Assembly: GCA_964430685.1 (NCBI GenBank)
Contig: CAYSGV010000001.1
Location: 1-62,245 of the forward strand
DNA length: 62,245 nt
Direction: 5' to 3'
DNA from: an uncultured Gammaproteobacteria bacterium
GTDB lineage: Bacteria > Pseudomonadota > Gammaproteobacteria > CAYSGV01
Shown piece after piece: positions 13,693 through 34,274 of this stretch. Numbering within the stretch: position 1 is the stretch's first letter; each line of letters begins with the position of its first letter. The position numbers and the translations under genes were made by a program. The notes beneath the pieces are model-generated. The model worked only from the letters and a program-made list of their open reading frames with translations. It was not told the origin of the DNA and did not search any database.

Positions 13693-15327
13693 TTATACCT
13701 TAGGTGGTGATGGTGGGTTATAAAGCAACGGAGCCTGCCCTTGTCCTAATCCTGCTCGAGGAGCAATCGTATCCCCTCCCCTCGGGATTGGTATAAATGG
13801 TGTTTTATAGCCCGTTCCAACAACATCCTTTGTTTGTGTAGCATGTGGTACAACGGCTATGGTAGGAGTTACTACGGCCGCTTTTTCGTCTGCGGCTTTT
13901 GCTTCTCTTAATTTAGCCATAATGTATTTAAATGTTGCAGTGTGCTCTGGTGTTTTTGCTTCTTTTGCAGCCTGCAGATCTGATTTTTCTATATTTTCTT
14001 CGATTCCCATCTTGAATTCTTCAATCAGGCATTTTACTGCTGCTTCGTGTCCTGCGCGTACAGCCAAACCAAGTGCACTGATGTTATCTAAGCGAGCAGT
14101 CATATTAAGTTTGGGAAACAACTCCTTACAAAGTCTTAGTACAGTCAGATCCCCTCTTGCAAGAGCCTCAAACATCACACGTACACCAATGATTTCATCT
14201 CTAGCCCTAGCTGGATATTTTTCGAGTAGCCATTTTACAAACTGAATGTGGTTACTACGTAATGCAATATAGACGCTACCGAAATTTAAATCATCGATAT
14301 CTTGGTTAAATTCTTTAATTAAACAATCAATAGCTTCTTTATTGCCAAACATGACTGCACCTTCCATTGGCCCCATGTTATTTCCATTACGTTTATTTGG
14401 ATTAATTTGTGGAAATTTTTTGCAATAGCGTAACAACTCTGGTTTGTTCTCACTGGCTGCAACAAATACTAGATTTTGTCCAGAAGCATCACAAGTGGTT
14501 GGGTCAATACCTTTTTCTTCGATTAACCATCTTACCAATTCTATCTTTCCAGCTCGTGCAGCAGACAAAACAGGCGTATCTCCACCAGGACCATAAGAAG
14601 CTCGATGTATATCGGCCCCTTGACGCATGTATGTTTCAATTAAATCTTTTCTTCCCGCATGTGCAGCATCGAAAAGCTCTTTTGCAAATGGTAATATTTT
14701 CTTTGAAGCTGGTACTTTCAAAGCAGGATTTGTAATTCTGCTACGTAAATAGTTAAGCGTTCGCTCACTACCCATGTTTGCCGCATTATCTAAAGTTTCT
14801 TGAGTTACCACTTTATTAAGGTCAACACCATGTGCCTCAATCCATTGTACTGCATCGAGTGTATCCTCTAGCGGAATAACATAATTTATAATATGCCTTT
14901 TACCTTTTGTTTCTTCAAACAAATCGGGTTGCTTTTTCTTCATTTCATTAAAAAATTCTAATAAATGGATATGATTATATGTCGCCGCTAGTAAGAAAAG
15001 ATCGTAAGCTAATTCGTCACTTATTTTATCTTTACTTTTTATTAAATTCGGATCTGTAGCGAGCAACTTCTGAACTAATGGTAAATTCCCAACTATCACA
15101 GCATCTACAATTTGCTGACTTGGCGTTTTTGCATTCGCTGCAGATTGCTTGGCTGGTGGCGGAGGTAATGGTTTGGAAACAGAGGCAGCGGGTTTAGATG
15201 CTGCAGATGGCGGTACAGCAGAGGCGCCTCCTCTATTACCATTAGCAGCATTTGAGCGGCTCTCAAGTGGCGCCGATGGCATTGCTACGGGATTAACAGG
15301 ACCAGCGACAGGGGTTCTTTTATTCAT
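13693..15327 (-). CDS. multi-ankyrin-repeat protein with Pro/Ala-rich N-terminus
   Basis: Several ANK units, e.g. GDTPVLSAARAGKIELVRWLIEEKGIDP, SGQNLVFVAASENKPELLRY, ISALGLAVRAGHEAAVKCLIEE. GGAGG SD 7 nt upstream of the ATG. Confidence 0.8.
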   Translation of the reverse strand: MNKRTPVAGPVNPVAMPSAPLESRSNAANGNRGGASAVPPSAASKPAASVSKPLPPPPAKQSAANAKTPSQQIVDAVIVGNLPLVQKLLATDPNLIKSKDKISDELAYDLFLLAATYNHIHLLEFFNEMKKKQPDLFEETKGKRHIINYVIPLEDTLDAVQWIEAHGVDLNKVVTQETLDNAANMGSERTLNYLRSRITNPALKVPASKKILPFAKELFDAAHAGRKDLIETYMRQGADIHRASYGPGGDTPVLSAARAGKIELVRWLIEEKGIDPTTCDASGQNLVFVAASENKPELLRYCKKFPQINPNKRNGNNMGPMEGAVMFGNKEAIDCLIKEFNQDIDDLNFGSVYIALRSNHIQFVKWLLEKYPARARDEIIGVRVMFEALARGDLTVLRLCKELFPKLNMTARLDNISALGLAVRAGHEAAVKCLIEEFKMGIEENIEKSDLQAAKEAKTPEHTATFKYIMAKLREAKAADEKAAVVTPTIAVVPHATQTKDVVGTGYKTPFIPIPRGGDTIAPRAGLGQGQAPLLYNPPSPPKV

Positions 15328-18880: not shown

Positions 18881-21772
18881 TTAAATTTTCCAGTGTTGGT
18901 CTTTCTTTTGCAGCATCATTTGCAAGAACGCATCACTACGATGGGCTAAATGGCGCAATATATTTACTTTTTCTTCTATGTTGAACTGCCCTTTCTGTAT
19001 ACGTTCGTTTAATTGTTTTACTGTTTGTCTGGGATACATTGCGGCTGAACCTTTTCTTATGTCCCAAAATTCATGTTGGAAATCTTTGTGCTGAGAAATC
19101 TCTTTTGCTTTATCCATTAATAACTGCCCGAGTTGCTGCGCTTCATTGCTATATTGTTTGGCTTTTATGGGATTATTTAGCCGCTGCTGATTTCGAAGCC
19201 CTATCAATTTATGATATTTACATTCATCCCGAATATATGCTTTTAATAGCTCTGACAAAGAATGTTTCGGTTCGTTGCGAATCTTAATACCTAAGCTTAC
19301 AAATTGTTTCGATAAGTTTTCCTGCCATGTTTGCAATCGCTTAGTAATATGAGTTTTGATATGTCCAACAACATTTTCAGTTAACAAATCACGACGAGTC
19401 ATAAATGCGAGAGGATAATCAAGCACACTATCTTTAAGCGCATATCGCGCTAAACTTCGCGCGAGATTTGACCGGTCGCGATATTCTGTTTGCGCAGCAT
19501 AAAGTTGGCAACTTTCCCGATGCCGGCTGAGGGCAACATAGGTTAAATGTCTATTCCAACACTGTCCACCTAGATAGACCAAGGTATGGTCCTTGGTCAT
19601 TCCTTGCGCTTTATGTATGGTTCCTGCATACCCATAGGTAAACTGACTATACTCCTTAGGGCTAAACCGCATGCTTTGCTGACTATCAAGCAAAACGGTA
19701 ATATCCACTACCCTACCCTGCTTATTTACATGTATGTCGGCAACCGTACCAAAACTACCGTTTCGAATTTTTAAGTTTCGGTCGTTTTTAAGAAAAAGAA
19801 TTCTATCTCCAACGCTGAGCTGTATTTCTCCTTGAATCGTGCGTATGGAATGACCATGCGATAAGTCGCCATGTTGTATACGCTCCCCGCGAATTCGTTC
19901 ATTGAGTAATGATACATCACGATTACGATGCGCCAGCATTAATATTTCATTTAAGGGGTTTCTTTGCCGTAATATGTACCAATGGCGAATCATTTGTTGT
20001 ATGGCTGCGGTTTCATCCTCTTTGAAATGTAAATGCCCTGCCTCATCATAAGCTCGCAATCCTTGCGCTATTTTCCCCTCTGAAAAGGCAAGTGTGGCTT
20101 CGCGTTGCCAGTCAACCTTTTGTCTATAGATGGTTTGTAAGTCAGTGAACCCTACACGCTCCACTATGGCACGGAATGATGCACCGGGACCAATAGGCTG
20201 CAACTGCTGCACATCACCAACTAATACTAACTTCGCACGTGCCTTCACAACGTTTTTAAGTAATGCGTGCATCCCATGACTATCTGTCATTCCGGCTTCA
20301 TCCATTACGACAACATCACCTTGTCGTAAATACACACTTCCCTTCTCAAGCCCTAAACGAAAAGCATCAATGGTTCTTGATTGAATACCTGCACCTTGCT
20401 GCAAATTATCAGCAGCCACCCCGGATAAGGCGACTCCAAATACCCGAACACCATGTGACTGCCATATTATATTTGCTGCACCCAGTAATAAGCTTTTGCC
20501 AGTACCGGCACGCCCCACGACACAACAAATAGCCCTATTGCGTATAAGGCGATTAACCGCAATGCGTTGCTCAAGAGTCAGATTTTTAGCCTCTTTTTGC
20601 TCATACTCTATTAGAAGTTTTTCTCGTCGTTTTACCGAAATAGAGAGATGTCCTCGTTTTCGCAATTGCTCTGCCAAGAGTTGAATTTTGTTTTCTAAAC
20701 GAAATAAGCGCCTGGTCGTGAACTGCTCATGTCCCTCTGGACTCAACCCTAAATAAACAAGCTCTGAGGACGCTTTTAATTGCATAAGAGCTTGTGCAAA
20801 ATGCTCTGCCTTGTCAGTATAGGGTAATAATGCTTTTGCGAGGCTGCGCTGCGTAAATACAGCATCATAGTATTCGATACCTTTAAGTACTTTCTCGATA
20901 TTCTCTTTTGACAGATAATTTGTGTTGGCCGGTTCTGGTAAAAACACATACCGTTGTAACTCATGAATGATTTGTTTGGTATCAAAACAGTCTTGTCCAA
21001 ACCCAAGCTTATTAAGTAAGCGCTCTGGTTTTTCTCGAATGCGTTCATTGTTATGCCGGTAAGTTTCTTGTATTGCATCCCATCGTTCCAATGACTTTCC
21101 AAGCTTGCGCATTTCACCTATTGCACGACCGCGATGCTGTGTTGGAATTAAATCAATGCCCTGAGCTTCATACGAACGATGGTCAATCCGCGCTGGGTGT
21201 TGATGCAACTGCAAATGAAAATTTGCGTAAGCGGCCCACTGTTGACGCCATTCTTGTAACAAGGTTTTTTGGTTCCACTCGGTCACCTTCCGGCCAAAGC
21301 CTAGGGTTGTTATTTCACGCATGGTGAGTAGGACATGAACATGCGGATTACCATTATCCCAGTGAACCGAATAATCTGCGACCATGCCATGTTGTACAAA
21401 TTGATCTTGAATAAATTCTTTTGCCAAACTGATATTCTGTTCACGGGTAAGTTCTATTGGTAACGCAAATTCAATTTCACGGGCAAGCTGTGCATCGATT
21501 CGCGTCTCTTTTGCTTCAACCAGGTTCCATAACCTCTCTGCTGCTAACCGTGCATCATCTTGCTCTAATGTCGTTATAGGTCGCAGCCAGGAGGCAGCAT
21601 TCGCCGGAATAAGTATCTCACGATGCACCACATTCGATTTGCTGGTGTAGTCCCACCATCGCCCTTCCCTCTCATCAAACAAGCGCATGGCACGACGATA
21701 GGCTGCGGCGGCAACAATACTTTGTCCTTTGCCCCGAGAAATTGTTTTTGCATGTAGGTGGTAGATAGCCAT
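18881..21772 (-). CDS. traA: Ti-type conjugative relaxase TraA (MobA/MobL relaxase fused to RecD-like helicase)
   Basis: N-terminus MAIYHLHAKTISRGKGQSIVAAAAYR and HWDNGNPHVHVLLT (MobA/MobL motifs I and III). Central Walker A VVGRAGTGKS and DEAGM, with a UvrD_C-like C-terminal GYAGTIHKAQG. Confidence 0.9.
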   Translation of the reverse strand: MAIYHLHAKTISRGKGQSIVAAAAYRRAMRLFDEREGRWWDYTSKSNVVHREILIPANAASWLRPITTLEQDDARLAAERLWNLVEAKETRIDAQLAREIEFALPIELTREQNISLAKEFIQDQFVQHGMVADYSVHWDNGNPHVHVLLTMREITTLGFGRKVTEWNQKTLLQEWRQQWAAYANFHLQLHQHPARIDHRSYEAQGIDLIPTQHRGRAIGEMRKLGKSLERWDAIQETYRHNNERIREKPERLLNKLGFGQDCFDTKQIIHELQRYVFLPEPANTNYLSKENIEKVLKGIEYYDAVFTQRSLAKALLPYTDKAEHFAQALMQLKASSELVYLGLSPEGHEQFTTRRLFRLENKIQLLAEQLRKRGHLSISVKRREKLLIEYEQKEAKNLTLEQRIAVNRLIRNRAICCVVGRAGTGKSLLLGAANIIWQSHGVRVFGVALSGVAADNLQQGAGIQSRTIDAFRLGLEKGSVYLRQGDVVVMDEAGMTDSHGMHALLKNVVKARAKLVLVGDVQQLQPIGPGASFRAIVERVGFTDLQTIYRQKVDWQREATLAFSEGKIAQGLRAYDEAGHLHFKEDETAAIQQMIRHWYILRQRNPLNEILMLAHRNRDVSLLNERIRGERIQHGDLSHGHSIRTIQGEIQLSVGDRILFLKNDRNLKIRNGSFGTVADIHVNKQGRVVDITVLLDSQQSMRFSPKEYSQFTYGYAGTIHKAQGMTKDHTLVYLGGQCWNRHLTYVALSRHRESCQLYAAQTEYRDRSNLARSLARYALKDSVLDYPLAFMTRRDLLTENVVGHIKTHITKRLQTWQENLSKQFVSLGIKIRNEPKHSLSELLKAYIRDECKYHKLIGLRNQQRLNNPIKAKQYSNEAQQLGQLLMDKAKEISQHKDFQHEFWDIRKGSAAMYPRQTVKQLNERIQKGQFNIEEKVNILRHLAHRSDAFLQMMLQKKDQHWKI

Positions 21773-22689: not shown

Positions 22690-24147
22690 CTATGGTTTAT
22701 TTTCGATTTGACCAGATAATAACTTCAATCCTAATTCCGTAATTTTATATCTTTGTTTACTACTTTTAGGTTTTTCAGGAATAGTCATTCCTAATAAGTC
22801 ATTTTCTATAAGTGGGGTAATATATTTTTGTCTAAATTTTGTCCTATTTTTCCAGCGTATCACTTTCATTAGTTCAGTGACTGTCTTGGGATTTCGACAT
22901 AAATCTATTATTGCGCTCATTTCCAGATCTAATTCGAACTTGGTCCCAACTTGGTCCCGACTTAGTCCCGACTTAGTCCCAGATGGTGCTACTGTTGCAA
23001 CTTCCGGATGTGGATAAAATGTCACTCGCAACACATTTCCTAATTCTTCCCATTGAGGTTCTGGATACCCACCACGATGGCAAGCTTCTTTTATTCGTTT
23101 GTAACCACTGCCCCATTCTTCTACTAAACCTAGTTCACCGAAAACTCGAGCAATAGTAGGGTTACGAATACGGCTGACTCCTGCTTTAAATTGCTCGATA
23201 CTCATTCCCGGTGGCATCACTCCTGGATTTTGAATTTCAAGCTTGTCATCGTATATTGCAACAAAAATACGAGTTCCAGGAATTTCATAGTTTGCATGGA
23301 CAAGAGCATTGGTCAGCGCTTCTCGAATTCCATCTATTGGGTACTCTGAAATATCTGTTCGCTTCATCGCACCAAACTTACCAGACATTTTAGTATTACG
23401 TCGTATAAATTTAGGAACTTCCTCTATAGCACGAAGAATACCGTCTTCAATATTTAATCGATCGATAAATTCAGCTCTTGTTGTCCCCACAAACCGAGCA
23501 CATCGTACTTCAGCAAACGGGAAATACTCATGTCGAATTTCTGGTTTACCAAATAAAATTACTCCACCATTGCTGGCAACATCACGTTTTCCTCTTTTAG
23601 TCAGAATACCTAAATTAAGCAATTTAACGGTATCAATGGAAAAGTTTCTTTTTGAAAAAACGGTTTCAATAAGCTGCATATCTAGATCAAATTCCACCAC
23701 ATTATCACATGCGGTTTTATCAAAAAAAGGATGATGATGTGCACGTTTTATTTCATCAATTAATTCTTTACTAGCAAGCCTGGTCGAATTTCCTAACCTA
23801 GTGTAAACACCATTTTCCTCTCCCTTATCAGATAAATAATAAGGAACTGCCACATGATCTACCTGTATAACTAAAACTGATTTTCTTTTAGCCTCAAAAA
23901 TGTGAAAATCAGGTAATATTTGTGGTTTTATTCTATGTGCAATTGCATTGGCCAATTGTTCCTGTACACGCGCAGGTTCCTTAAGGCCAACAATATCGCC
24001 ATTGTCATCAACTCCAATTAGAATGATGCCACCAGCAGTATTAGCAAATGCAACAACGCATTTCAAAATCGGTTCTAAAGAAGAAGTATCCCGCTTGAAT
24101 TCTAATGTTTTACTTTCTGGTAATTTAGCAAGTCGAATAATATCCAT
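22690..24147 (-). CDS. AlbA_2 (Schlafen-like, 'divergent AAA') + HATPase_c_4 + C-terminal wHTH protein
   Basis: N-terminus SKTLEFKRDTSS...VVAFANTAGGIILIGVDDNGDIVG (AlbA_2). IREALTNALVHANY...FVAIYDDKLEIQNPG...RNPTIARVF..LGLVEEWGSGYKRI (HATPase_c_4). Confidence 0.85.
   Translation of the reverse strand: MDIIRLAKLPESKTLEFKRDTSSLEPILKCVVAFANTAGGIILIGVDDNGDIVGLKEPARVQEQLANAIAHRIKPQILPDFHIFEAKRKSVLVIQVDHVAVPYYLSDKGEENGVYTRLGNSTRLASKELIDEIKRAHHHPFFDKTACDNVVEFDLDMQLIETVFSKRNFSIDTVKLLNLGILTKRGKRDVASNGGVILFGKPEIRHEYFPFAEVRCARFVGTTRAEFIDRLNIEDGILRAIEEVPKFIRRNTKMSGKFGAMKRTDISEYPIDGIREALTNALVHANYEIPGTRIFVAIYDDKLEIQNPGVMPPGMSIEQFKAGVSRIRNPTIARVFGELGLVEEWGSGYKRIKEACHRGGYPEPQWEELGNVLRVTFYPHPEVATVAPSGTKSGLSRDQVGTKFELDLEMSAIIDLCRNPKTVTELMKVIRWKNRTKFRQKYITPLIENDLLGMTIPEKPKSSKQRYKITELGLKLLSGQIENKP
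22937..22980. repeat. 4 x 11-bp tandem repeat inside the AlbA_2 gene
   Basis: + strand units are AACTTGGTCCC, AACTTGGTCCC, GACTTAGTCCC, GACTTAGTCCC. On the coding strand these are GGGACTAAGTC x2 and GGGACCAAGTT x2. Unit length is not a multiple of 3; the array encodes SGTKSGLSRDQVGTKF. Confidence 0.9.
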
Positions 24148-24180: not shown

Positions 24181-25020
24181 TCAAGTGGTTCTGATATGTT
24201 CCACTAACCATTCTATCTCATCAAGAGAATTAATAGGTATAACCACCCGCCCTTCTCCACGTTTATTCAAGTGGATTCTTACTTCTACAGATAACTTTTG
24301 CGCTAAAACTTTATTCCATTGCTGTATCTTATCTTCCAATTCAGTATTTATTGCTTCAATTGTCGTTATTGGCTTTTGTTTTATTTTCTGTGCGATCTTC
24401 TCGGTTTCTCTGACTGATAATGCCTTATTAACTATTACCTTAGCTATTGCAATTTGTTGATTACTATTTAAACTTAATAATGCTCTAGCATGTCCCATTT
24501 CTAGTAATCCCGCATTAATCATGGTCTTAACTTCATTCTCCAAATTTAACAATCTAAGCAGGTTACTAACGGTTGCACGTGACTTACCAATACTTTCAGC
24601 TATTTGATTATGTGTCATGGCACATTCTTCTAATAAACACTGTATTGCCTGAGCAAGCTCTAATGGGTTCAAGTTTTCACGTTGAATATTTTCAATCAAT
24701 CCAACGGCTCTTCTACTCGCACTATCATATTCTTTTATAATTACCGGTATTTTCTCCAACCCTACCAACTTTGCAGCGCGCCATCTCCGTTCTCCTGCAA
24801 TAAGCTCGTACATATTAGTATTAGCAAGTTTTCTAACAATTATCGGTTGAATAACGCCATGTTTCCTAATAGAGGCTGCAAGTTCATTTAGTAACCTTTC
24901 ATCAAAATTCTTCCTGGCTTGATTATGATCAGGTACGATTTGTGAAACATATAGTTCATCAGCATCAAAATTTATAATATTACTTTTCAAATCTATTGGT
25001 TCAAATGCTGCAAACTTCAT
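24181..25020 (-). CDS. parB: ParB/Spo0J-family partition protein
   Basis: GVIQPIIVRK....YELIAGERRWRAAKLVGLEKIPVII (ParB box) followed by an HTH. ATGA overlap with the upstream rep gene. Confidence 0.85.
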   Translation of the reverse strand: MKFAAFEPIDLKSNIINFDADELYVSQIVPDHNQARKNFDERLLNELAASIRKHGVIQPIIVRKLANTNMYELIAGERRWRAAKLVGLEKIPVIIKEYDSASRRAVGLIENIQRENLNPLELAQAIQCLLEECAMTHNQIAESIGKSRATVSNLLRLLNLENEVKTMINAGLLEMGHARALLSLNSNQQIAIAKVIVNKALSVRETEKIAQKIKQKPITTIEAINTELEDKIQQWNKVLAQKLSVEVRIHLNKRGEGRVVIPINSLDEIEWLVEHIRTT

Positions 25021-26201
25021 TTGATGGCCTTTTCATCAATTAAAGTATCTTTTAATGAATGTTGTCGTAATTGTCCTTCACAATTCGTTATAAGTTCTAG
25101 TATATGTGATTCATCCGAACCATTTCTGCTGGCTCGAGTATACTCCAAAACCCTTCTCCAATGCTGAAGTTCCATTTGCAAATCATAGGTATTATCATTC
25201 TGCAGAGCTTCGCTATCAATGATATTTTTTTCTGTATTTTGGGATTGAATATTATCCTTTACTTTATAGTCGTGCTTAAGCGCACTAATAAAATATGGTA
25301 TGGGATAAAATCCCGAGTTATCTTTTTTAGCATGTTGAACTGTATAAGCAACTTTCTCCAAAATATATTCCGCAGAGTAATTTTTTAATATATTTTCAAG
25401 CACAGAAATTCTTATCGACCCGAAAACATGTTCAATTTCTTTACAGACTTTATCATTTTTATCAATAGCTCCCTGGTTCTCTGTTTTGGTTGGTTTTTTC
25501 TTACTATTAACAAATAAATCATATCCTACAATTCTTCTGCCATTTTTAACTTCTTCTAAATTCACGACAAAATCAGCCAGCTCATTAACTTCTTCAATCG
25601 CTGGCTGTATTACATTTCTTTTTAGCTCACCCATGTTGGAATAATTACTTTCTGAAACACCCAATAGTTTTCTAAACGTATTCAGCTGGATAACTTTGCT
25701 TTTTTGAAGATTAACAAAACGGGTACTATTTTCGTAAAGTGAATGACCGTATTTTGATTCGAATCGAGACTGAATATCAAGATTTATAGTCCCATATATA
25801 GATGGATTATCAACCAAATCAAGCATCACTTTATGAAAAGAAAAATTTAAGCTGCCATCTTGATAAAAGGTTGGTGCTCCATGTAAAACTCTCAAGTTTA
25901 AAAATGATATATTTGTTGGAACTTTATCTTTTAAAAGGTTCCATTCTATTTTTAGGGATGCAAGCCCATCGATTGCCTCCTTCAAATATCGAGTATTATT
26001 ACTAATAAATCTAATTTCTTTAGATAGGTTAGAAAAATGAATGCGGCATTCAACGGCAACGGATTCTCTAATATCAATAAAATTATTTTTCTTAATTGCT
26101 TCATATAGTAGAACATTTACAACTTTTCTTTGTAATGAGCTCATTAGAGAATAGGCATGTATTATCGCAACATGTTTTTTTATGGTTCGTTCAGTTACCA
26201 T
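25017..26201 (-). CDS. Rep_3-type (iteron-binding) plasmid replication initiator
   Basis: N-terminus ...HAYSLMSSLQRKVVNVLLYEA... and central NTFRKLLGVSESNYSNMGELKRNVIQPAIEEVNELADFVVNLEEVKNGRRIVGYDLFV fit the Rep_3/RepB winged-helix pattern. An iteron array lies upstream in the same module. Confidence 0.7.
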   Translation of the reverse strand: MVTERTIKKHVAIIHAYSLMSSLQRKVVNVLLYEAIKKNNFIDIRESVAVECRIHFSNLSKEIRFISNNTRYLKEAIDGLASLKIEWNLLKDKVPTNISFLNLRVLHGAPTFYQDGSLNFSFHKVMLDLVDNPSIYGTINLDIQSRFESKYGHSLYENSTRFVNLQKSKVIQLNTFRKLLGVSESNYSNMGELKRNVIQPAIEEVNELADFVVNLEEVKNGRRIVGYDLFVNSKKKPTKTENQGAIDKNDKVCKEIEHVFGSIRISVLENILKNYSAEYILEKVAYTVQHAKKDNSGFYPIPYFISALKHDYKVKDNIQSQNTEKNIIDSEALQNDNTYDLQMELQHWRRVLEYTRASRNGSDESHILELITNCEGQLRQHSLKDTLIDEKAIK

Positions 26202-26228: not shown

Positions 26229-26600
26229 TCATGTTTTCCTCATAAGTCTACTTAAAATGGCAGCACGAATAATGGCTGCTTGAGGGCCTCTAATATCAGG
26301 GTAGGCCTTAACCACCTCGTTTCTCATTTCAGCAAAAATACATCGCTGCTGAAAGGTCATATAAATTTTATCAAACACAAAATCTTTATTATTACCTTCC
26401 GCATTACATACCATTTCCTTGTAGTCCGGGTTTTCTTTCAACATAAGAATAGCTTCATTCACCCAATCACTTTTCTTTTTTAAATTATATTTATCGGAAT
26501 TAACCAAGGTTGCTCTTATTTTTTGTTTAATTTCCTTATTAAGAGTAAAGGTAATAATTTTTTTATCTTCTTCGTCGTTATTCAACGTAAGCTTATTCAT
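26229..26600 (-). CDS. hypothetical protein within the par-rep operon
   Basis: 123-aa ORF whose start overlaps the upstream stop by 1 nt (coupled). Confidence 0.45.
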   Translation of the reverse strand: MNKLTLNNDEEDKKIITFTLNKEIKQKIRATLVNSDKYNLKKKSDWVNEAILMLKENPDYKEMVCNAEGNNKDFVFDKIYMTFQQRCIFAEMRNEVVKAYPDIRGPQAAIIRAAILSRLMRKT

Positions 26601-27652
26601 TATTTTAATGAGACTCCTTGCTCAAGCAAAGCTATAATATTTCTAAACGCAACCTCAACCGATTCATTACTATTCCATAGGATATCGCCTTTTATATTAT
26701 TCAATTGCTTCAGAATATTATCCTTCAAAACATTGCTTGATATTAATGCATCGACAATAATTTTGACAATATCAGGCTTGACCGCACCCAACCGAATATA
26801 TGGTTTTCGACGATTTTTCATTTCCTTTTTCATTGGTTGAACATTTTGATTTGTCTCAAGTTCTTTTTTAAATTTGACAATGGATTCATAGGTCTGCCCT
26901 GCTAACGCCATGTTTAGAAGTAATTTTTGATGCTCAGCGCTCTCAGTCATGCAAATGAGTTCTATGATCTTAATGTTTTCCAATTTACCATCAAGAATTA
27001 ACTGTTTTATCTCAGGTTTAGACTTAATAATTAAAATGTACCGCCGTGCCTGAGTACTAGACATTCCTGTTAAATCTCCTAGCAACTGGGATGTTATTCG
27101 CTCTTTAGCATTATTCTTGTTATTCTCAGCTAAATATTCTTTTATAATTGATTCAAGACTTAAAATTCTTTCAGGTAGCGAGAGGTCAGCACGTTCATTA
27201 TTTTCAATCCATTGCAATACTCTGAGTTTTGTCCCAACTGGCCTTTGACTTGCAATTCGAGCTATAATTTCTTTCTTACCAGCAATAGCTGACGCTAAGG
27301 TTCGCCTTTCACCAGCAATTAAACGACATTTATTACCATATCTATAAACAAACACTGGATTAATTAGCTGGTCATTCATTATAGTTTTAGCTAATGATTC
27401 CAAAGATTTCCAATCCTGTTTTTTCCTTTCATAATTCACATCTGTTGAATCAATTCCATTAATAGCATCCTGAAGAGTTAAGAGTAACTCGCGTTTGTTG
27501 TCAGGATCAAGTTCAATGTTTTCCAAAGGTAAGACCTCTATTGATAACTCACCAGCATAATTATTTGCGATTTCTAGCGTTCTAATTATAGCTTCTTTTG
27601 TTTCAATACTTTTAGAACTCTCTAATTTGAATTTATTAACCATAAATAGCAT
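26600..27652 (-). CDS. ParB-N-domain protein (second ParB-like protein of this module)
   Basis: LINPVFVYRYGNKCRLIAGERRTLASAIAGKKEIIARI (ParB/Srx box). Overlaps the parA 3' end by 17 nt. Confidence 0.7.
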   Translation of the reverse strand: MLFMVNKFKLESSKSIETKEAIIRTLEIANNYAGELSIEVLPLENIELDPDNKRELLLTLQDAINGIDSTDVNYERKKQDWKSLESLAKTIMNDQLINPVFVYRYGNKCRLIAGERRTLASAIAGKKEIIARIASQRPVGTKLRVLQWIENNERADLSLPERILSLESIIKEYLAENNKNNAKERITSQLLGDLTGMSSTQARRYILIIKSKPEIKQLILDGKLENIKIIELICMTESAEHQKLLLNMALAGQTYESIVKFKKELETNQNVQPMKKEMKNRRKPYIRLGAVKPDIVKIIVDALISSNVLKDNILKQLNNIKGDILWNSNESVEVAFRNIIALLEQGVSLK

Positions 27653-28553
27653 CCTCGTATTGATTCACCTTATTGTAAGTATTATGAAAAACTCTTTCAT
27701 ACACGTAAGAACACCACTTTTCACTTTCTATTCTTGCTGGATTTGATTTAGGTAAATTAAAAACACAATTCGGTTTAGCGTTTTCAACAACAAGCTCAGT
27801 ATAAAGTGTTCGTAATGCAATAGGAGGTAATAACCATTCTTCAGATCCATCTATGGATCTTAAATCATTAAGAAACTTATTATGGACAGCGGTTTTTCTA
27901 ACTTGATTTGGAAGGATTCCAGCAATTTGTATAGTGTCATCTTTGGGTCTTCTAAGTTGTTCTTGAGAAATCGCTTCTATCATTCCAATTGTTCCATTTA
28001 TACCATATTGCTCTAATTCCGTTGGCAATAAACCATGTGTAGCAGCTCTAAGACCAGCCATTGTTAGTGGTCCAAATTGTGGATTAGTATCTATAATAAT
28101 AAATTCATAATCACTGTGTTTGGATAGTAACGTTGTAAATTCTTTTAGCCTATTGATGACTTTTTCTTTTACATCAATTTTTAATACACGTTGCGCGTCT
28201 TCAAGTAATGAAGCAAAAGAAGGAAAACACTGTAAACTATTTAGCCAAGTTGGATATGGATATATCGGCCTACCAGTAAATATATCAGCAATACTACTAA
28301 TACCATCCCAATGTGAATCATCTTCTGGAGGTTTGTTTGGATCCCAATCTGGATGTGGTTTAGGCATATACCCCGTTGGATGAGCAGGATCACGAACCAT
28401 AGGAATTAAACTTGATGAAGAATTTCCTTGAGGGTCTAAATCTATAAATGCGCCTTTCATGCCTTTGCATATTACAAGATACTGCGCGAGTGTTAGTGCA
28501 ATAGTAGACTTCCCTATTCCACCTTTATTTCCTGCTGTTGTAATTACTTTCAT
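27636..28553 (-). CDS. parA: ParA/Soj-family partition ATPase
   Basis: Deviant Walker A at the N-terminus (MKVITTAGNKGGIGKSTIALTLA) and Walker B region FIIIDTNP. Confidence 0.85.
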   Translation of the reverse strand: MKVITTAGNKGGIGKSTIALTLAQYLVICKGMKGAFIDLDPQGNSSSSLIPMVRDPAHPTGYMPKPHPDWDPNKPPEDDSHWDGISSIADIFTGRPIYPYPTWLNSLQCFPSFASLLEDAQRVLKIDVKEKVINRLKEFTTLLSKHSDYEFIIIDTNPQFGPLTMAGLRAATHGLLPTELEQYGINGTIGMIEAISQEQLRRPKDDTIQIAGILPNQVRKTAVHNKFLNDLRSIDGSEEWLLPPIALRTLYTELVVENAKPNCVFNLPKSNPARIESEKWCSYVYERVFHNTYNKVNQYEDAIYG

Positions 28554-28732
28554 TTATCCTCCAAAGGACACTATGTACTATTCGCAAGGCTATCTTTAAA
28601 AATCGAATTTTGCAAGCGGTATAATGTACTTTTGTTTATTAGAAAAATATATTTATATTTTCATATTTATTAATTCCTAGGAGAATTAATTACATAAATA
28701 CATGATAATTAATGTAAAATACAAAAAATGAT

Positions 28733-28852
28733 ATGTAGTAATATGGGTATTAGTATGTAGGATTATGGGAAGTTAGATGTAATTTATCTATATTATGTAG
28801 GATTATGGGTAACATAACATGTAGATTTATGGTAAATATGTAGCTTTATGAG
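28733..28852. repeat. iteron-like array, about six copies of ATGTAG(G/A/C)(A/T)TTATGGG
   Basis: Copies at 28733-28747, 28755-28769, 28777-28790 (degenerate), 28795-28809, 28819-28832 and 28838-52. Start-to-start spacing is 22, 22, 18, 24, 19 bp. The array lies about 180 bp upstream of parA in a 1.5-kb AT-rich non-coding region. Confidence 0.8.
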
Positions 28853-29821
28853 AAAAATGTTAAAATGAATAAAATGCAAAATATATAATGAATGCGGCTA
28901 TCTAATAAATAATCATTATCATATAAACATATAAAACTAATTTCAACTTTCAATAAAATTTTTACCATCGAAAATAGTTAGATTAATTACCGCCTTGATT
29001 TATTTATGCAGTTTAGCAGAATATCAATTATTCTTTAAATTTTGCATGTGTATCTTGTTAATAAACGTATGCATGAAATTAATAATGGCAGCACTAGAAA
29101 TCATATTCAGGATTCATAAAGTCTTGCAAATTTTTGGCTAACAGAAATTTTGCAGGTATAGCAATATAGAATAATATCCTTGATGCATATGCAATAACAG
29201 ATTTAAATGTTTACCTCACGCATATCGTATAGAAAACAGTGCAACTGGATTAAGTAGCTACCTCTACGTGTGATATTTTTATTCAATTATTAATATAACA
29301 TAATTGATACTCATCTGATCAATGTATCTTTCGATAATAATGATTTTTTATCTCTTATCGTCCTAAATTAGCCGTGAATAAGTTTATACAATACTTAAAG
29401 AATATTTCCCACTTAGGCATTTTTACTGGATAACGATTAATATATAGTTTGTGGATATCAATATTAGGCAATGTTGATCTTGTCGTTGGTTCAAAATATA
29501 TCAATGATCAGCTAGTACTATATTACATGGAAAAAAAGTGGACGATTGAGAGCAAGATAATATCCGATTTCAAATTAATTTTTTACGTCTTTATGCGAAT
29601 ATACTTAATCAAGGTGCAATGTGATAATTAGTTTTTATGCGTTCATACGTCCCACTATTATCGCTTAATTAATATTAATTATTTCCATCTAGGATGGCAG
29701 TCTTTTTATATATAATTTGAATTTATAATGTTAATAATTATTCTATATTCATATTTACTAAACATATCAATTTTCTGTTAGAATTTAACAAGCAATAGCT
29801 AGTTTTGGTGTTATTAATAAG

Positions 29822-30045: not shown

Positions 30046-30092
30046 TAGATTGCATGTTTTAACTAAAAAAGCATGTTAAAACATGCAATCTA
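30046..30092. promoter_or_regulatory. perfect 18-bp inverted repeat (TAGATTGCATGTTTTAAC / GTTAAAACATGCAATCTA, 11-nt spacer), candidate par operator
   Basis: Arms are 30046-30063 and 30075-30092, ending 24 nt upstream of the parA-like ATG at 30117. Confidence 0.6.
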
Positions 30093-30116: not shown

Positions 30117-31145
30117 ATGGCGAAGCAAAGATGGACTAGCGTAGATATCCGCAAATTATTTCGTATAGACAGTAAAATCAGAAGCATACGAACCATACAT
30201 AATGCAGAAGAACGTGGTGATATCCCTAAAGCAAAACGTACATTGCGCGGGAAAGTTCCTGTTCGAGAATGGCAAATTGAAGATCTACCCATTATTGGCA
30301 AGCATTTTGGTTTTATAAAGAAACCGACTTATCAAAATATTTTTTGCGTATATACCGCTAAAGGTGGTGTTTTAAAAACAACTTTGGCGTATACACTTGC
30401 CCGAATATTTGCTCTTAATGGGATACGTACACTCATTGTGGGTTTAGATATACAATGTTCCATTACAGATATTACATTGCCACCAAAAGACCTACAATCA
30501 CTCGAAGATTCACAAGCTGAGCAATATGCAGGGCTTTATCATTTTCTTTATGACCAAAAAGATTTGAATCAAGTTATTCAAAAGACCAGTTTACCTACGC
30601 TCGATATTATCCCAGAAACTCCCGACTTAAATCTACTTGAAAAAAAATTGCGATTAGAGCCGAGACGAGAATATCTTTTATTAGATAAATTGATTCCACA
30701 CTTATCTGACTACGATGTTATTATTTTCGATAATGGTCCCAGTTGGAACCAACTAATTGAAAGTGCGCTTACAGCGGCAAATATTGTGCTCTCACCCATA
30801 GGCTGTGATATTGGTACCTATCAAGCATTACAAACAAATCTAGCCACACTTATTGATTTTCAACAAGCGATGCAATTGGATTGGAAGCATTTCTTTTTAA
30901 TTCCCACCTTGCTTGAGAAAACGAAGTTGAGCCGACAAATTTATGGAAGATATTTGTCTCAATATGCAGAACAAATCATTTCAAATCCTATTCGACGTGG
31001 TGCAAAAGGGCAGGAAGCATTTTTACTTTATCAAAGCATTATCGAGCATGATCCAACTGCACCATTAGCAAATGATTACTATGAACTCATTACTGAGCTA
31101 TGGGAACGAGTAACACAGGAAGAAGGAATAAGCTGTGGCGCTTAA
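30117..31145 (+). CDS. parA: type Ia-like ParA/RepA partition ATPase with N-terminal HTH extension
   Basis: About 75-aa N-terminal extension (WTSVDIRKLF...RGKVPVREWQIEDLPII, MerR-like as in repABC RepA / P1 ParA), then Walker A VYTAKGGVLKTTLAYTLA and VIIFDNGPS. Confidence 0.8.
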   Translation: MAKQRWTSVDIRKLFRIDSKIRSIRTIHNAEERGDIPKAKRTLRGKVPVREWQIEDLPIIGKHFGFIKKPTYQNIFCVYTAKGGVLKTTLAYTLARIFALNGIRTLIVGLDIQCSITDITLPPKDLQSLEDSQAEQYAGLYHFLYDQKDLNQVIQKTSLPTLDIIPETPDLNLLEKKLRLEPRREYLLLDKLIPHLSDYDVIIFDNGPSWNQLIESALTAANIVLSPIGCDIGTYQALQTNLATLIDFQQAMQLDWKHFFLIPTLLEKTKLSRQIYGRYLSQYAEQIISNPIRRGAKGQEAFLLYQSIIEHDPTAPLANDYYELITELWERVTQEEGISCGA

Positions 31146-32418
31146 TGACAAAGTTATGGAAGACTATTTTAGTCGGAGTAAAAAAAATCTGGCTGCTCTC
31201 AGATTACCTATAGCTAATACTTCCCACATAAGGGTATTTGATGAGCCAGCTGAAGCAATAAATACTAGCCAAAACCTAAGACAAATACAGGACAAAATCT
31301 CGGACAATGTTAATACAAATATAGAACGAATATCTGACAAACCTAGGACAAACTTAGAACCAGTTTTAGAAAAACCTAAGACCAAACTTAGGACTATACA
31401 TAGGACAAATGTAAGACAAATCTCGGACAAAATAGTTAGTCTAACTTCCTTTTCTTCACTTGTTGGTTTGCAGCGAAAAATTACTCTATACATTTATGAG
31501 ATTTGTAAATTTTCACGCGATAAAATAACGCCACCAATATTAATTCAAGACATAGCCGATAATTGTGATACCACAAAATTATCAGCACAAAAAACGATTC
31601 AACGCCTTGAGAAGAAGAAAATTATTATCCGTGTGGAATACAAAATAGGGCGTTCAGGATGGACGCGGTATGAACTTTCAGAAACGATTTATCAGGATAT
31701 AATGCTATTTGAGACAAGAAACCAAATAATGAGTAATGTAGGACAAACCTCAGACAAAGTTAGGACGGAATCTAGGTCAGAATCTAGGACAAACGTTGTT
31801 AGTAGTAGTAGTATTAATAATATATATAAAACTACTACTACAGATCCTAAGGTCCATCTAGATTTAGAACAGCATGAAAATTCATTTTCGGATGAATGGC
31901 AATCGGTGAATTTTGAGCCGTTGCTAGAAATCGGATTTTCGATTAGCCACCTGAGACAAATTGTCAGTTTAAAAAAATTTACCCCTGAAGAGATTGCGTT
32001 ATCGATTGACGCCTTTGCTTTCGATTTGAAGGAAAACAATCGACAAGAAACATTGAAAAAAGATCCGTTGAATTATTTCATGGGTGTTTTACGTAACGGG
32101 GTACCTTATGCGCCACCGAGTAACTATGAACCCGCACAAATTCGAGCTTTGAGAGCGTATACGGAACGCCAAAGAGAAGTGCAACAAAGATGTGAGGCTG
32201 TTGAAAATGAAAGTATACAGCTTGCCTTTAATGATTGGGTTAATGGGCTGACAGCAGACGAAAAAGAACAGCTCATTCCAGAGCATATGCGCAAGATAAA
32301 ATCTGAGACACTCAAAAATGCAGCGCTTCGTAGCTATTTTGAGACCCATATATGGCTAACTCAGCGCCAGCAATTAATTGAAACATTTTCTCAAAGGGAA
32401 GAGGAGGGGAGGGGATAG
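31135..32418 (+). CDS. winged-helix DNA-binding protein, candidate centromere-binding or replication-initiator protein
   Basis: GTG start with AAGGA SD, overlapping the parA stop. wHTH-like segment ILIQDIADNCDTTKLSAQKTIQRLEKKKIIIRVEYKIGRSGWTRYELS. Low-complexity segments coincide with the DNA repeat arrays. Function not assignable from sequence alone. Confidence 0.5.
   Translation: MALNDKVMEDYFSRSKKNLAALRLPIANTSHIRVFDEPAEAINTSQNLRQIQDKISDNVNTNIERISDKPRTNLEPVLEKPKTKLRTIHRTNVRQISDKIVSLTSFSSLVGLQRKITLYIYEICKFSRDKITPPILIQDIADNCDTTKLSAQKTIQRLEKKKIIIRVEYKIGRSGWTRYELSETIYQDIMLFETRNQIMSNVGQTSDKVRTESRSESRTNVVSSSSINNIYKTTTTDPKVHLDLEQHENSFSDEWQSVNFEPLLEIGFSISHLRQIVSLKKFTPEEIALSIDAFAFDLKENNRQETLKKDPLNYFMGVLRNGVPYAPPSNYEPAQIRALRAYTERQREVQQRCEAVENESIQLAFNDWVNGLTADEKEQLIPEHMRKIKSETLKNAALRSYFETHIWLTQRQQLIETFSQREEEGRG
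31277..31431 (+). repeat. intragenic array of about 10 (T/C)(A/C/T)(A/G)GAC(A/C/T)A(A/T)-type motifs (core GGACAAA) at 11-12 bp phasing
   Basis: Motif starts at 31277, 31288, 31300, 31333, 31344, 31377, 31389, 31401, 31412 and 31423. Examples are TAGGACAAA x2, TAAGACAAA x2 and TCGGACAA(A/T) x2. Confidence 0.85.
31739..31793 (+). repeat. second intragenic array, five phased motifs (TAGGACAAA, TCAGACAAA, TAGGACGGA, TAGGTCAGA, TAGGACAAA)
   Basis: Motif starts at 31739, 31750, 31761, 31773 and 31785, giving spacing of 11, 11, 12, 12 bp. Confidence 0.85.
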
Positions 32419-32558
32419 GACAGAGTAAATGATATCATTGGATTAAATATCGTGTTTTCAAGAGAAGTGATGTATATCACAAAAGAGCGTACCGCATACA
32501 AGAGGTAAACAATTCGAGTATGCGGCACTAACCAAATTAACCTGTTTTGGAGGTCAAT

Positions 32559-32873: not shown

Positions 32874-34274
32874 ATGACCTTAGATGAGCTTAAATTAATC
32901 ATTGCGCAAAATGAATCAAAAATACTTGAATTTAAAGAATCAACGGCGAAATTAAAATCTGCTTGTGAAACGCTTTGTGCTTTTTTAAATAATCACGGTG
33001 GTGTTATTTTAATCGGTGTAAAAAATAACGGCCAAATAATAGGCCAACATGTTACAGACAATACAAGACAAGAGATTGCTAATGAAATTAGCAAAATAGA
33101 ACCAACAGCATCTGTTGAGGTTGATTATGTATCCATTGATGGCAATAAATTTGTTATAGTCATAAAAGCTGTTACTGGGCAACATGCGCCCTATGTTTAC
33201 GATGGTCGGCCTTTTCATCGGACTGAATCGACAACAAGTAAAATGTCTCAACATCGTTATGAGCAATTATTAGTTGAACGTGGACAACTAAAACATTCTT
33301 GGGAAGAATGGATAGCCTCTGGATATACGATTGATGATCTTGATCATAATGAAATTCGCCTTGCAGTTAAACAAGGTATTTCAGTGGGACGTGTTCCTGC
33401 TGTGGTAGCGGATGAATCTCTTGAAAATATTTTACAAGGTTGGGCGCTGCTTACAGAGGGCAAAATTAATAATGCTGCCGCAATCTTATTTGCTAAGAAG
33501 GTGCTGCCCCGTTATACACAATGTCATATAAAACTTGGTCGATATAGGGGTACAAATAGGCTAGGGGATTTTATTGATAACAAAGAATTCTTTGGCAATG
33601 CATTTCGTATGTTTGAAGAAGCAAATAGTTTTATAACACGGCATCTTCCAATCGCTAGTTTTTTTGAACCTGAACGTTTTGAACGTCTTGACCGACCCGC
33701 ATTACCTGTATTGGCAGTACGTGAAGCATTAGTCAATGCAATTTGTCATCGTGATTATTCTAACCGTGCTACGGCCATAACAGTGGCAATATTTGATGAT
33801 CGGATGGAAATTTGGAACAATGGAAAATTGCCACCATCCCTAAAAATTGATAATTTAAAGAAAAAGCATAAATCAGAGCCGCGTAATAAAGTTATTGCTA
33901 AAGTATTTTATGATCGCAAATACTTCGACGGTTGGGGTACAGGAATCAATAAGATATATGATCTCTGTCATGAAGAGGGAGTACCAGAACCGGTTTATGA
34001 AGAGTATTCTGGAGGGGTTGAAATCATATTTAAGTTTCGAGAGCTGATAGCTATTACTAGTTTACCACTCAAACAACCATTAAGCATAAGACAAGAAGAA
34101 ATATTGAAAATTATCAAAAAATTAGGCGGGGTAAGTCCTAAACTGTTGATAGACAAATTAGACAATCCACCGTCAGAACGAATGATTCGTAATGATTTAA
34201 ATTACCTTAAAAAATGTGGTTTAATTGATATCAAAGGTTCAGCACGAAGTACCTTATGGGTGCTAAAGAAATAA
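32874..34274 (+). CDS. AlbA_2 (Schlafen-like) + HATPase_c_4 + wHTH protein, paralogue of 22690-24147
   Basis: ESKILEFKESTAKLKSACETLCAFLNNHGGVILIGVKNNGQIIG. VREALVNAICHRDY...VAIFDDRMEIWNNG...RNKVIAKVF...GWGTGINKI. Confidence 0.85.
   Translation: MTLDELKLIIAQNESKILEFKESTAKLKSACETLCAFLNNHGGVILIGVKNNGQIIGQHVTDNTRQEIANEISKIEPTASVEVDYVSIDGNKFVIVIKAVTGQHAPYVYDGRPFHRTESTTSKMSQHRYEQLLVERGQLKHSWEEWIASGYTIDDLDHNEIRLAVKQGISVGRVPAVVADESLENILQGWALLTEGKINNAAAILFAKKVLPRYTQCHIKLGRYRGTNRLGDFIDNKEFFGNAFRMFEEANSFITRHLPIASFFEPERFERLDRPALPVLAVREALVNAICHRDYSNRATAITVAIFDDRMEIWNNGKLPPSLKIDNLKKKHKSEPRNKVIAKVFYDRKYFDGWGTGINKIYDLCHEEGVPEPVYEEYSGGVEIIFKFRELIAITSLPLKQPLSIRQEEILKIIKKLGGVSPKLLIDKLDNPPSERMIRNDLNYLKKCGLIDIKGSARSTLWVLKK

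Follow-up and report, generated by a model that had tools for sequence, protein, structure and literature searches.

Why should a coding sequence carry helically phased DNA repeats that are translated in all three codon phases? The question is raised by a gene directly downstream of a parA gene in an uncultured Gammaproteobacteria bacterium (contig CAYSGV010000001.1); the window analysed here comprises positions 1 to 62,245 of the forward strand, 62,245 nucleotides in all. The gene encodes a 427-aa protein of an uncharacterised family. A comparison with its homologues suggests that it might contain an origin of replication within the gene of its own initiator, and that this site probably also serves ParA. 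We assign this reading a probability of roughly 0.6, the replication function being what we infer from sequence features. The locus is composed of the following elements:

30117-31145, plus strand: parA, encoding a 342-aa type Ia-like Walker-type partition ATPase with an N-terminal extension of ~70 aa.
31135-32418, plus strand: the family gene (427 aa, uncharacterised family), whose GTG start overlaps the parA stop codon.
31135-31248, plus strand: region coding for the N-terminal peptide (MAL..V..DYF..K; R33-x-F35-D36-x-P38).
31277-31431, plus strand: array 1, 14 direct head-to-tail units at 11-12 bp spacing, consensus yTAGGACAAAn.
31447-31734, plus strand: region coding for a winged helix-turn-helix (wHTH) domain, residues ~105-200, with recognition helix TTKLSAQKTIQRLEKK and wing KIGRSGWTRYEL.
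31737-31793, plus strand: array 2, five direct units (TAGGACAAA, TCAGACAAA, TAGGACGGA, TAGGTCAGA, TAGGACAAA).
31794-31799, plus strand: spacer CGTTGT between the last array 2 unit and the TAG run.
31800-31840, no strand assigned: inverted repeat of (TAG)4 (31800-31811), a 20-nt core of 100% A+T (31812-31831) and (CTA)3 (31832-31840).
31882-32415, plus strand: region coding for the helical C-terminal domain, residues ~250-427 (FAFDL...PLNYFMGVLRNG.PYAPPSNYE).
32416-32424, plus strand: an additional motif copy, TAGGACAGA, with an 8/9 match, whose TAG is in frame and ends the gene as its stop codon; as a single site it could have arisen by chance.

Both arrays have the core RGACAAA, and all their units lie on the coding strand. 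Twelve steps of array 1 measure 11 bp and two measure 12 bp (11-bp register layout); nine units carry the core [AGT]GACAA and five are degenerate. Array 2 is spaced by 11, 11, 11, 12 and 12 bp. Tandem Repeats Finder reports a period of 11 at 31336-31431 and a period of 34 at 31272-31434, and a repeat finder places the two arrays in a single repeat family. Array 1 is read as residues 48-99 in all three phases (NLRQIQDKISDN...HRTNVRQISDK). An earlier interpretation made from the letters of this DNA and its open reading frames (ORFs), referred to here as the sequence-only reading, had described these repeats as a GGACAAA-type motif at helical spacing. The sequence agrees with it in position and spacing, and its count of about ten copies in array 1 is revised to 14 units, five of them degenerate. 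The translation of the motif in three phases that it had pointed out is confirmed: each codon phase has four of the 12 RGACAA copies in the ORF, and QDK/SDK, RTN and RQI are all found in the protein. Scoring the motif over the window, along the lines that it had proposed, revealed an enrichment of RGACAAA (38 copies observed in the window, nine of them in the arrays, against 22.7 +/- 5 expected; none of 100 shuffles reaches 38). The 62 kb contain 26 sites on both strands that match TAGGACAAA in at least eight of nine positions, and nine of these lie in the 1.28-kb gene, all on the plus strand.

Do the arrays reflect selection on the DNA or on the peptide? We compared the window gene with the DNA of 27 homologous genes (n = 28), using the 4-mer autocorrelation at lag 11 (or lags 11+12) relative to 500 synonymous-codon shuffles per gene. 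The loci were fetched with 14 close sequences. The periodicity exceeds all 500 shuffles in 26 of the 28 genes, with z between 3.8 and 13.4 for the two statistics; the exceptions are the Legionella pneumophila gene, which is borderline (z = 2.7), and gene L009, which gives no signal. Among the 21 genes tested first, lag 11 is the strongest short-range autocorrelation in 14 and is second to lag 22 in nearly all others. The copy in the window is among the more degenerate of the family (z = 2.9 at lag 11, reached by 5/500 shuffles; z = 4.7 at lags 11+12, reached by 0/500), whereas z lies between 5 and 13 in relatives. Homologues have 13-32 array 1 units in the same place, and array 2 directly follows the wHTH region in nearly all of them. 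Thus the 11-bp period is conserved, as is the placement of the arrays ahead of the wHTH region and directly behind it, and the repeated word differs by lineage. The words are GGACAAA/AGACAAA, GGCAACAAA, AGAACAAA, GGGAACAAA, TGAGCCAAAGT, GGTAACAAA, GATAACAAA, TAGCAAA, AACCTATCA, TAGTTCAAA and CCTACAACAAA; in core form, the motifs are RGACAAA, GAGCCAAA, CAACAAA, GAACAAA, GTAACAAA, GATAACAAA, TAGCAAA, AACCTATCA, TAGTTCAAA and CTACAACAA. Because the word is replaced between lineages, the peptides encoded at the same place differ completely (e.g., TNLGQSQDKLR, EPKLSQSEAKV and TNRQQTDNK).

Codon choice points in the same direction. For four genes that share the GGACAAA-type motif at 30-48% amino-acid identity, codon use within the arrays compares with the rest of the gene as follows:

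Asp as GAC: 22/26 in the arrays, 14/49 in the rest of the gene, p = 3e-6.
Arg as AGR: 25/26 in the arrays, 28/73 in the rest of the gene, p = 8e-8.
Thr as ACA: 28/46 in the arrays, 27/89 in the rest of the gene, p = 6e-4.
Gln as CAA: 30/33 in the arrays, 50/74 in the rest of the gene, p = 0.007.

In the two phases where the triplet ahead of the GAC core is out of frame, 18/26 and 12/27 copies have TAG, TAA or TGA there. Where this triplet falls in frame, it is CAA, CAG, TGG, TCG or GAA, each one nucleotide away from a stop codon. Stop-like triplets out of frame and minimal edits in frame thus suggest TAGGACAAA as the preferred DNA word. Taken together, the sequence comparison supports selection on the arrays as DNA, as the sequence-only reading had argued: period and positions are kept, the motif is replaced, the peptides drift and the codons are biased towards the motif. 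The sequence checks that it had set out gave this result, in that shuffled genes do not reproduce the periodicity and homologues keep the phasing while the encoded residues drift and the motif itself is swapped by lineage. Its suggestion that the arrays are protein-binding sites within the ORF, either a centromere or iterons, is likewise supported at the level of sequence, and the present evidence leans to iterons. On the Piscirickettsia salmonis plasmids L028 (1010-2446) and L036 (1010-2422), array 1 consists of six near-perfect 45-bp repeats (15 aa, EHISEQYGNEYRNNQ), and the gene has 14 copies of the word GGAACAA; the common array design seems to have undergone a recent expansion here.

If the arrays are binding sites, the domain encoded between them is their probable partner. 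The protein is ordered as a conserved N-terminal peptide, a disordered linker, the wHTH domain, a second disordered linker and a conserved helical C-terminal domain. The AlphaFold (AF2) model predicts a short N-terminal helix, a predicted local distance difference test score (pLDDT) >95 for residues ~105-200 and ~95 for residues 250-427. The score falls below 50 at residues 29-100 and 210-244; the first of these disordered stretches is encoded by array 1, the second by array 2 together with the Ser/Thr runs described below. Full-length Foldseek searches against the PDB return MarR/ArsR-type wHTH structures alone (E ~3e-3), and a profile search of PDB sequences finds only generic wHTH regulators (E >= 0.014). 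The recognition helix changes with the motif. SAQKTIQRLE occurs with GGACAAA in five genes, AA(V/A)RKA(V/I)QRLE with GAGCCAAA in seven and (A/I)KTTLQRLE with CAACAAA in two, and genes with unique motifs carry unique recognition helices. This covariation is what a cognate pair of protein and site would predict, and it is confounded by phylogeny.

Plasmids listed for one strain offer a further view of specificity. Bdellovibrio sp. HAGR004 has three plasmids with one family member each, and their motifs are RGACAAA, TAGTTCAAA and CCTACAACAAA. Two of these plasmids, pBdHAGR4 and pBdHAGR5, are 99.7% identical over 7,264 bp; their resolvase genes are 84% identical and the C-terminal domains of their family genes 91% identical in DNA sequence. 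No nucleotide similarity is detectable between the two in parA, the arrays or the wHTH region. If the replicon lay in the 99.7%-identical part, the pair should be incompatible. A swapped block of parA, arrays and wHTH region is as expected for a determinant of incompatibility and specificity, as far as sequence comparison can suggest. The two plasmids (L001 and L032) also share a bAvd-like gene followed by a gene for a 399-aa protein with weak tail-fibre similarity, a pair that may be the target module of a diversity-generating retroelement (DGR) without an obvious reverse transcriptase.

Array 2 is followed by a third DNA-level element, an inverted repeat that the sequence-only reading had overlooked, as it had the large size of the family. 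In the window it is translated as SSSS-INNIYK-TTT and has a DNA hairpin fold with z = -3.6. The family consensus after array 2 is SSSS, 5-10 residues and TTTT, which in DNA reads (AGT)n, 13-25 nt of A+T-rich sequence and (ACT)n, i.e., an inverted repeat. Over 15 genes, the Ser runs use AGT in 53/65 codons as opposed to 108/513 Ser codons elsewhere (p = 7e-22), and the Thr runs use ACT in 50/57 as opposed to 103/422 Thr codons elsewhere (p = 1e-20). A TAG run is paired with a CTA run in 16 genes, the CTA count being 3-4. TAG cannot be read in frame, which explains why the element appears as runs of Ser (AGT) and Thr (ACT). As read from the flanks, the register between the first TAG and the last unit of array 2 is constant in 13 of these 16 genes, the core of the unit ending 8 nt ahead of that TAG; the sequence of the unit varies by lineage. 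The spacer of the relatives is 7 nt long and mostly G+C-rich (e.g., GCGTCCC and GCCTCTC). The (TAG)4/A+T/(CTA)3 element is proposed from its sequence as a candidate DNA-unwinding element. In the L. pneumophila plasmid NZ_CP117816.1 (L034, 19476-20873; WP_011212593.1), few AGATAAC units remain and the inverted repeat TAGTAGTA...CTACTA is kept. Judging from this pLPL-type member, arrays can decay much further than the inverted repeat.

How widespread is the arrangement, and does it occur where an origin would be needed? A word-indexed search returned 87 homologues, and a profile search of 1.84 billion cluster representatives returned 2,435 at E<=1e-3 and 1,129 at E<=1e-30 (50% identity clusters). 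With tblastn, 138 records of a plasmid collection were matched, namely Piscirickettsia (111), Legionella (20), Bdellovibrio (4), Fluoribacter (1) and Candidatus (2); in the best-ranked records the product is annotated as 'hypothetical protein' throughout. Megablast of 28.5-32.8 kb against plasmids and tblastn against 50,697 phage records gave zero matches each. A description of the family was not found in a literature search, which was not exhaustive. The literature on the Coxiella QpH1 origin was considered and set aside, there being no Coxiella record among the tblastn matches in the plasmid collection. The ParA ORF ends at most ~30 nt from the start of the family gene in at least 25 of 26 loci, and a search of the loci for a third gene that is conserved, for instance one for a small ParG-like protein downstream, found none. 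As ParA adjoins the gene in nearly all loci and a third gene is not conserved, ParA seems to need the family protein as its partner. None of the loci showed the terminal overlap expected of small circular contigs that carry the cassette alone.

Several complete plasmids carry parA and the family gene and have no annotated Rep or ParB. They are the L. pneumophila plasmid NZ_CP117816.1 (56 kb), the P. salmonis plasmid NZ_CP038897.1 (33 kb), whose remaining content is insertion sequence (IS) elements, toxin-antitoxin genes and phage-tail remnants, and Bdellovibrio pBdHAGR4 and pBdHAGR5 (11-12 kb). The arrays are the sole tandem repeats of pBdHAGR4, and its other genes encode toxin-antitoxin systems, a resolvase, the DGR-like pair and a mobilisation pair. 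For P. salmonis pPSLF89-1, -2 and -3, a published study reports that Rep, oriV and iterons were not found (PMC6963756). According to tblastn, pPSLF89-3 carries the family gene.

The annotated proteins closest to the family also point to replication. The 427-aa protein itself has no Pfam match at E<=0.1 and none in NCBIfam, and Pfam searches with 78 members return generic wHTH families only, below the cut-off. Among the same 78 members, the PHROG families phrog_428 and phrog_270 ('replication initiation protein') are matched by 32 and 28, respectively, the O-like families phrog_678 and phrog_391 by 22 and 19, and 'DnaD-like helicase loader' by 11, with a best E of 1e-7 overall. The window protein matches phrog_678 ('replication initiation O-like') with E = 4.8e-5 over residues 137-237. 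Hence, the nearest annotated relatives appear to be phage replication initiators.

At the other end of the protein, the N-terminal peptide is invariant at M1, A2, L3, F12, R33, F35, D36 and P38 among 14 close homologues, and distant members retain a KK.YR.(F/W) motif. Because this conserved peptide is encoded upstream of array 1, translation starts upstream of the array. From its sequence, the peptide is a candidate for contacting ParA.

These features can be combined into a mechanism. Both arrays would be iterons, the cognate double-stranded sites of the wHTH domain encoded between them, and one wHTH domain would bind each 11-bp unit (about one helical turn) along a single face of the DNA. 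As the sites lie within the ORF, they would be placed in the two intrinsically disordered linkers, where the protein may tolerate embedded sites. The preferred site TAGGACAAA would be altered minimally (CAG, TCG or TGG for TAG) wherever TAG would fall in frame. The G+C-rich spacer, (TAG)4, the A+T-rich core and the (CTA)3-4 after array 2 would together act as the unwinding element, and the C-terminal domain would presumably recruit host replication proteins. The co-transcribed ParA would probably use the same protein-DNA complex for partition, so that parA and the gene would make up a complete maintenance cassette. In this scheme it is binding, unwinding, initiation and the interaction with ParA that we infer. 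A more far-reaching proposal, which we put forward only tentatively and regard as somewhat doubtful, is that parA and the family gene form a self-contained 'replicate and segregate' cassette. One wHTH protein would be both the initiator and the centromere-binding partner of ParA, all cis sites would lie in its own ORF, as iteron arrays translated in three frames into disordered linkers and as a symmetric TAG-trio/A+T/CTA-trio unwinding element translated into Ser and Thr runs, this element would be opened without DnaA boxes, either with host DnaA or by the wHTH protein, and specificity and incompatibility would evolve by swapping parA, array and wHTH region.

Several observations weigh against an origin at this place. 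The PHROG matches are weak and cover mainly the wHTH domain, Pfam Phage_rep_O is matched by just two of the 78 members and below the cut-off, and Foldseek searches of the C-terminal domain against the PDB and BFVD return nothing significant (best E 3.7 and 0.41, respectively). A classical Rep_3 initiator is encoded in the window at 25017-26201, not far from 22-bp repeats at 28732-28860, and the window plasmid therefore needs no second origin. By analogy, the obligatory operon with ParA and the 11-bp period appear closer to centromeres such as R1 parC and R388 stbDRs than to iterons of 17-22 bp. No conserved TTATCCACA-like DnaA box (at most one mismatch) was found in or near the genes. The cumulative GC-skew minimum falls at 28-30.5 kb in the window, and in the L. 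pneumophila plasmid it falls at the gene pair; in either case gene orientation switches there, so that the minimum is not decisive. The arrays of the window and of L. pneumophila, with the z values of 2.9 and 2.7 given above, are degenerate. Synonymous shuffles also erase similarity that stems from recent duplication; the argument for selection is therefore based on comparison across lineages rather than only on shuffling.

Much of this would suit a centromere without replication function, in which the wHTH protein, as a non-canonical analogue of ParB, assembles a partition complex for the upstream ParA on the arrays as centromere and replication is provided for otherwise. We consider this unlikely on balance, yet a rival to be taken seriously. 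It accounts for the translationally coupled ParA that directly precedes the gene in at least 25 of 26 loci and for the absence of a conserved third gene, for the joint exchange of parA and the N-terminal two thirds of the gene between co-resident plasmids, and for a basic/aromatic N-terminal peptide where ParBs have their ParA-activating peptide. The grouping of 11-bp direct repeats into two sets is reminiscent of R1 parC and R388 stbDRs, and the window has its own Rep_3 initiator, adjoining a second parAB and the 22-bp repeats. However, it leaves three complete plasmids without a recognisable initiator or origin and gives no obvious role to a (TAG)4/A+T/(CTA)n element held in fixed register with the last unit. 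Moreover, the nearest annotated relatives are replication initiators rather than ParB, ParR or ParG, and a ParB_N domain is absent.

The remaining explanations dispense with a binding site. Selection could act on 11-residue peptide repeats (TNLGQSQDKLR-like), with the DNA period a by-product of slippage or unequal crossing-over and concerted evolution. Peptide repeats are indeed seen in all homologues, and synonymous shuffles cannot tell selection from recent duplication. Yet every lineage keeps the sub-codon period of 11 bp (3.67 residues) and not the peptide sequence, and genes at 30-48% identity, a distance at which saturation of synonymous sites is expected, still share the motif and the codon bias. 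The array-encoded segments are predicted to be disordered and the motif covaries with the recognition helix, all of which makes this explanation very improbable. Slimmer still are the chances of a function in RNA, either as a CsrA sponge or with the Ser/Thr hairpin as a translational regulator, or of a contingency locus that shifts frame with the 11-bp copy number. GGA repeats resemble CsrA sites, Legionella plasmids encode CsrA paralogues (e.g., NZ_CP117816.1, 46980-47138), and the (AGT)4...(ACT)4 stem could also form in RNA. The motifs of most lineages, however, lack GGA (GAGCCAAA, CAACAAA, TAGTTCAAA and AACCTATCA), on which ground the CsrA sponge was rejected, and Rfam gave no family at threshold, with sub-threshold noise from miRNA models on two inverted repeats. 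The contingency locus was rejected as well, since imperfect units and an ORF that is intact in 28 of 28 genes argue against frequent frame switching.

Returning to an origin within the initiator gene, the arrangement resembles ori-lambda, in which initiator-binding repeats and a following A+T-rich tract form an origin midway through the initiator gene. The lambda O protein has an N-terminal DNA-binding part of the wHTH type and a C-terminal part that recruits the helicase loader. The window has the same layout, with arrays at 31277-31431 and 31737-31793 followed by the A+T core at 31812-31831; it is conserved in homologues, and binding is predicted. The best annotated matches of the family are to PHROG 'replication initiation O-like' families. 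In contrast to the single block of 4-6 iterons of ~19 bp in lambda, the family has 5-30 units of ~11 bp in two or three blocks. These lie on both sides of the wHTH-coding segment, within disordered linkers and in all three codon phases, and a (TAG)n/(CTA)n inverted repeat surrounds the A+T core. The partner gene in lambda encodes a P-type helicase loader, whereas that of the family encodes ParA, and homology of the family to Phage_rep_O is not established by the two sub-threshold matches. In ori-lambda, extra iterons add residues in a part of O that is not involved in DNA binding (PMC7466680).

RepA_N replicons (pAD1, pSX267 and pLS32) and repC likewise have their origin within the initiator coding sequence, and incompatibility depends on the initiator. 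The repABC operon combines the initiator gene with a ParA-type repA (PMC3155836). Unlike the family with its iteron-like arrays, repC has no iterons, and repABC has a separate ParB (RepB) that the family lacks. The hosts differ too, being Gammaproteobacteria and Bdellovibrionota for the family and Firmicutes or Alphaproteobacteria for RepA_N/repC. A RepA_N/RepC domain is absent from the window protein according to Pfam, and RepA_N is not among the 25 listed families of the 41 matched by the 78 members. The 427-aa protein also lacks the Rep3_N/Rep3_C pair and has no match to ParB_N (ParB/Srx), a domain that the control ParB of the window (26600-27652) does match.

With respect to partition systems, the window locus is a two-gene operon with a Walker-type ParA upstream, as in type Ia ParABS. 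It differs from type II systems in both partners, the binder being a wHTH protein instead of a ribbon-helix-helix ParR and the ATPase a Walker-type ParA instead of an actin-like ParM. R1 parC/ParR and R388 stbDRs/StbA use direct repeats of ~11 bp in two groups, which are helically phased and cooperatively bound in a segregation complex. Their sites are intergenic and overlap the promoter. ParR is a ribbon-helix-helix protein that acts with the actin-like ParM, and StbA works without ParA. In the family, by contrast, the predicted binder is a wHTH protein of 427 aa that is paired with a Walker ParA, and the sites lie inside the ORF, next to an element of the unwinding type.

The chromosomal basal unwinding system comprises DnaA boxes, a short G+C-rich gap and at least three NAN trios with the consensus 5'-TAG-3' (3'-GAT-5') (PMC8287927). 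The family shows a putative double-strand binding site, a short G+C-rich spacer, TAG trios and A+T-rich DNA in like order, and in the window (TAG)4 (31800-31811) begins 6 nt past the last unit, as for DnaA-trios. It differs by having plasmid-specific 11-bp units in place of DnaA boxes and trios on both strands, as an inverted repeat facing the A+T core. Overall, and by analogy, the locus is best filed as an origin, or another cis site, that lies within the gene for the protein predicted to bind it. Membership in the O, RepA_N or repC families is not established, and the similarity to O-like proteins is weak. Judged by sequence, many ~11-bp units in three phases, blocks flanking the wHTH segment, the TAG/CTA repeat and a ParA partner without ParB appear to set it apart from known cases.

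If true, this reading would supply an initiator and an origin for plasmids without a known replicon, with P. salmonis plasmids, pLPL-like conjugative plasmids of L. pneumophila and several Bdellovibrio plasmids as candidates. The family comprises at least 2,400 clusters at 50% identity and has no Pfam model. It could be used to type replicons and incompatibility groups and to build shuttle vectors for fastidious intracellular bacteria. It would also be a case of dual coding in which DNA function is the main constraint on ~250 bp of an ORF, with site arrays in three frames, stops avoided by minimal edits and the constraint absorbed in disordered linkers. Furthermore, the order of iterons, spacer and TAG trios offers a testable link to the chromosomal origin-unwinding system.

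Upstream of the gene pair lies a possible control site:

30046-30092, no strand assigned: perfect inverted repeat with 18-nt arms (TAGATTGCATGTTTTAAC and GTTAAAACATGCAATCTA, 100% complementary) and 11 nt between them.

This repeat is located 25 bp upstream of the parA start and, in view of the autoregulation of type Ia ParA, is probably an operator or promoter site of the operon of parA and the family gene. The parA product matches Pfam AAA_31 (2e-27) and also CbiA; matches to partition_RepA of NCBIfam and to SopA-like proteins are both under the cut-off. Walker A (30340-30365) reads KGGVLKT in the ParA of the window and its close relatives, with Leu where most ParAs have the Gly/Ala of the deviant Walker A KGGxGK[ST].

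Elsewhere in the window, the gene of the Rep_3 initiator (Rep3_N and Rep3_C; 25017-26201, minus strand) lies just downstream of a second parA/parB pair (parA 27636-28553 and parB 26600-27652, both minus strand). Two maintenance modules thus stand back to back, and the window may therefore derive from a two-replicon plasmid. The 1.5-kb A+T-rich gap that separates the two par operons contains tandem repeats of 22/43 bp (TATGTAGGAATATGGGAAGTTAG-like, 28732-28860), which are candidate Rep_3 iterons or a candidate centromere of the minus-strand parAB. The replication/partition region is flanked by two paralogues with AlbA_2/Schlafen and HATPase_c_4 ('RecG-like C-terminal') domains (22690-24147, minus strand, and 32874-34274, plus strand; 29% identity, E = 2e-43). 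An ankyrin-repeat protein typical of Legionella-type effectors is encoded at 13693-15327 (minus strand), and a MobA/MobL relaxase-helicase at 18881-21772 (minus strand). The order of relaxase, then ParA and the family gene is also found on the metagenomic contigs L030 and L031.

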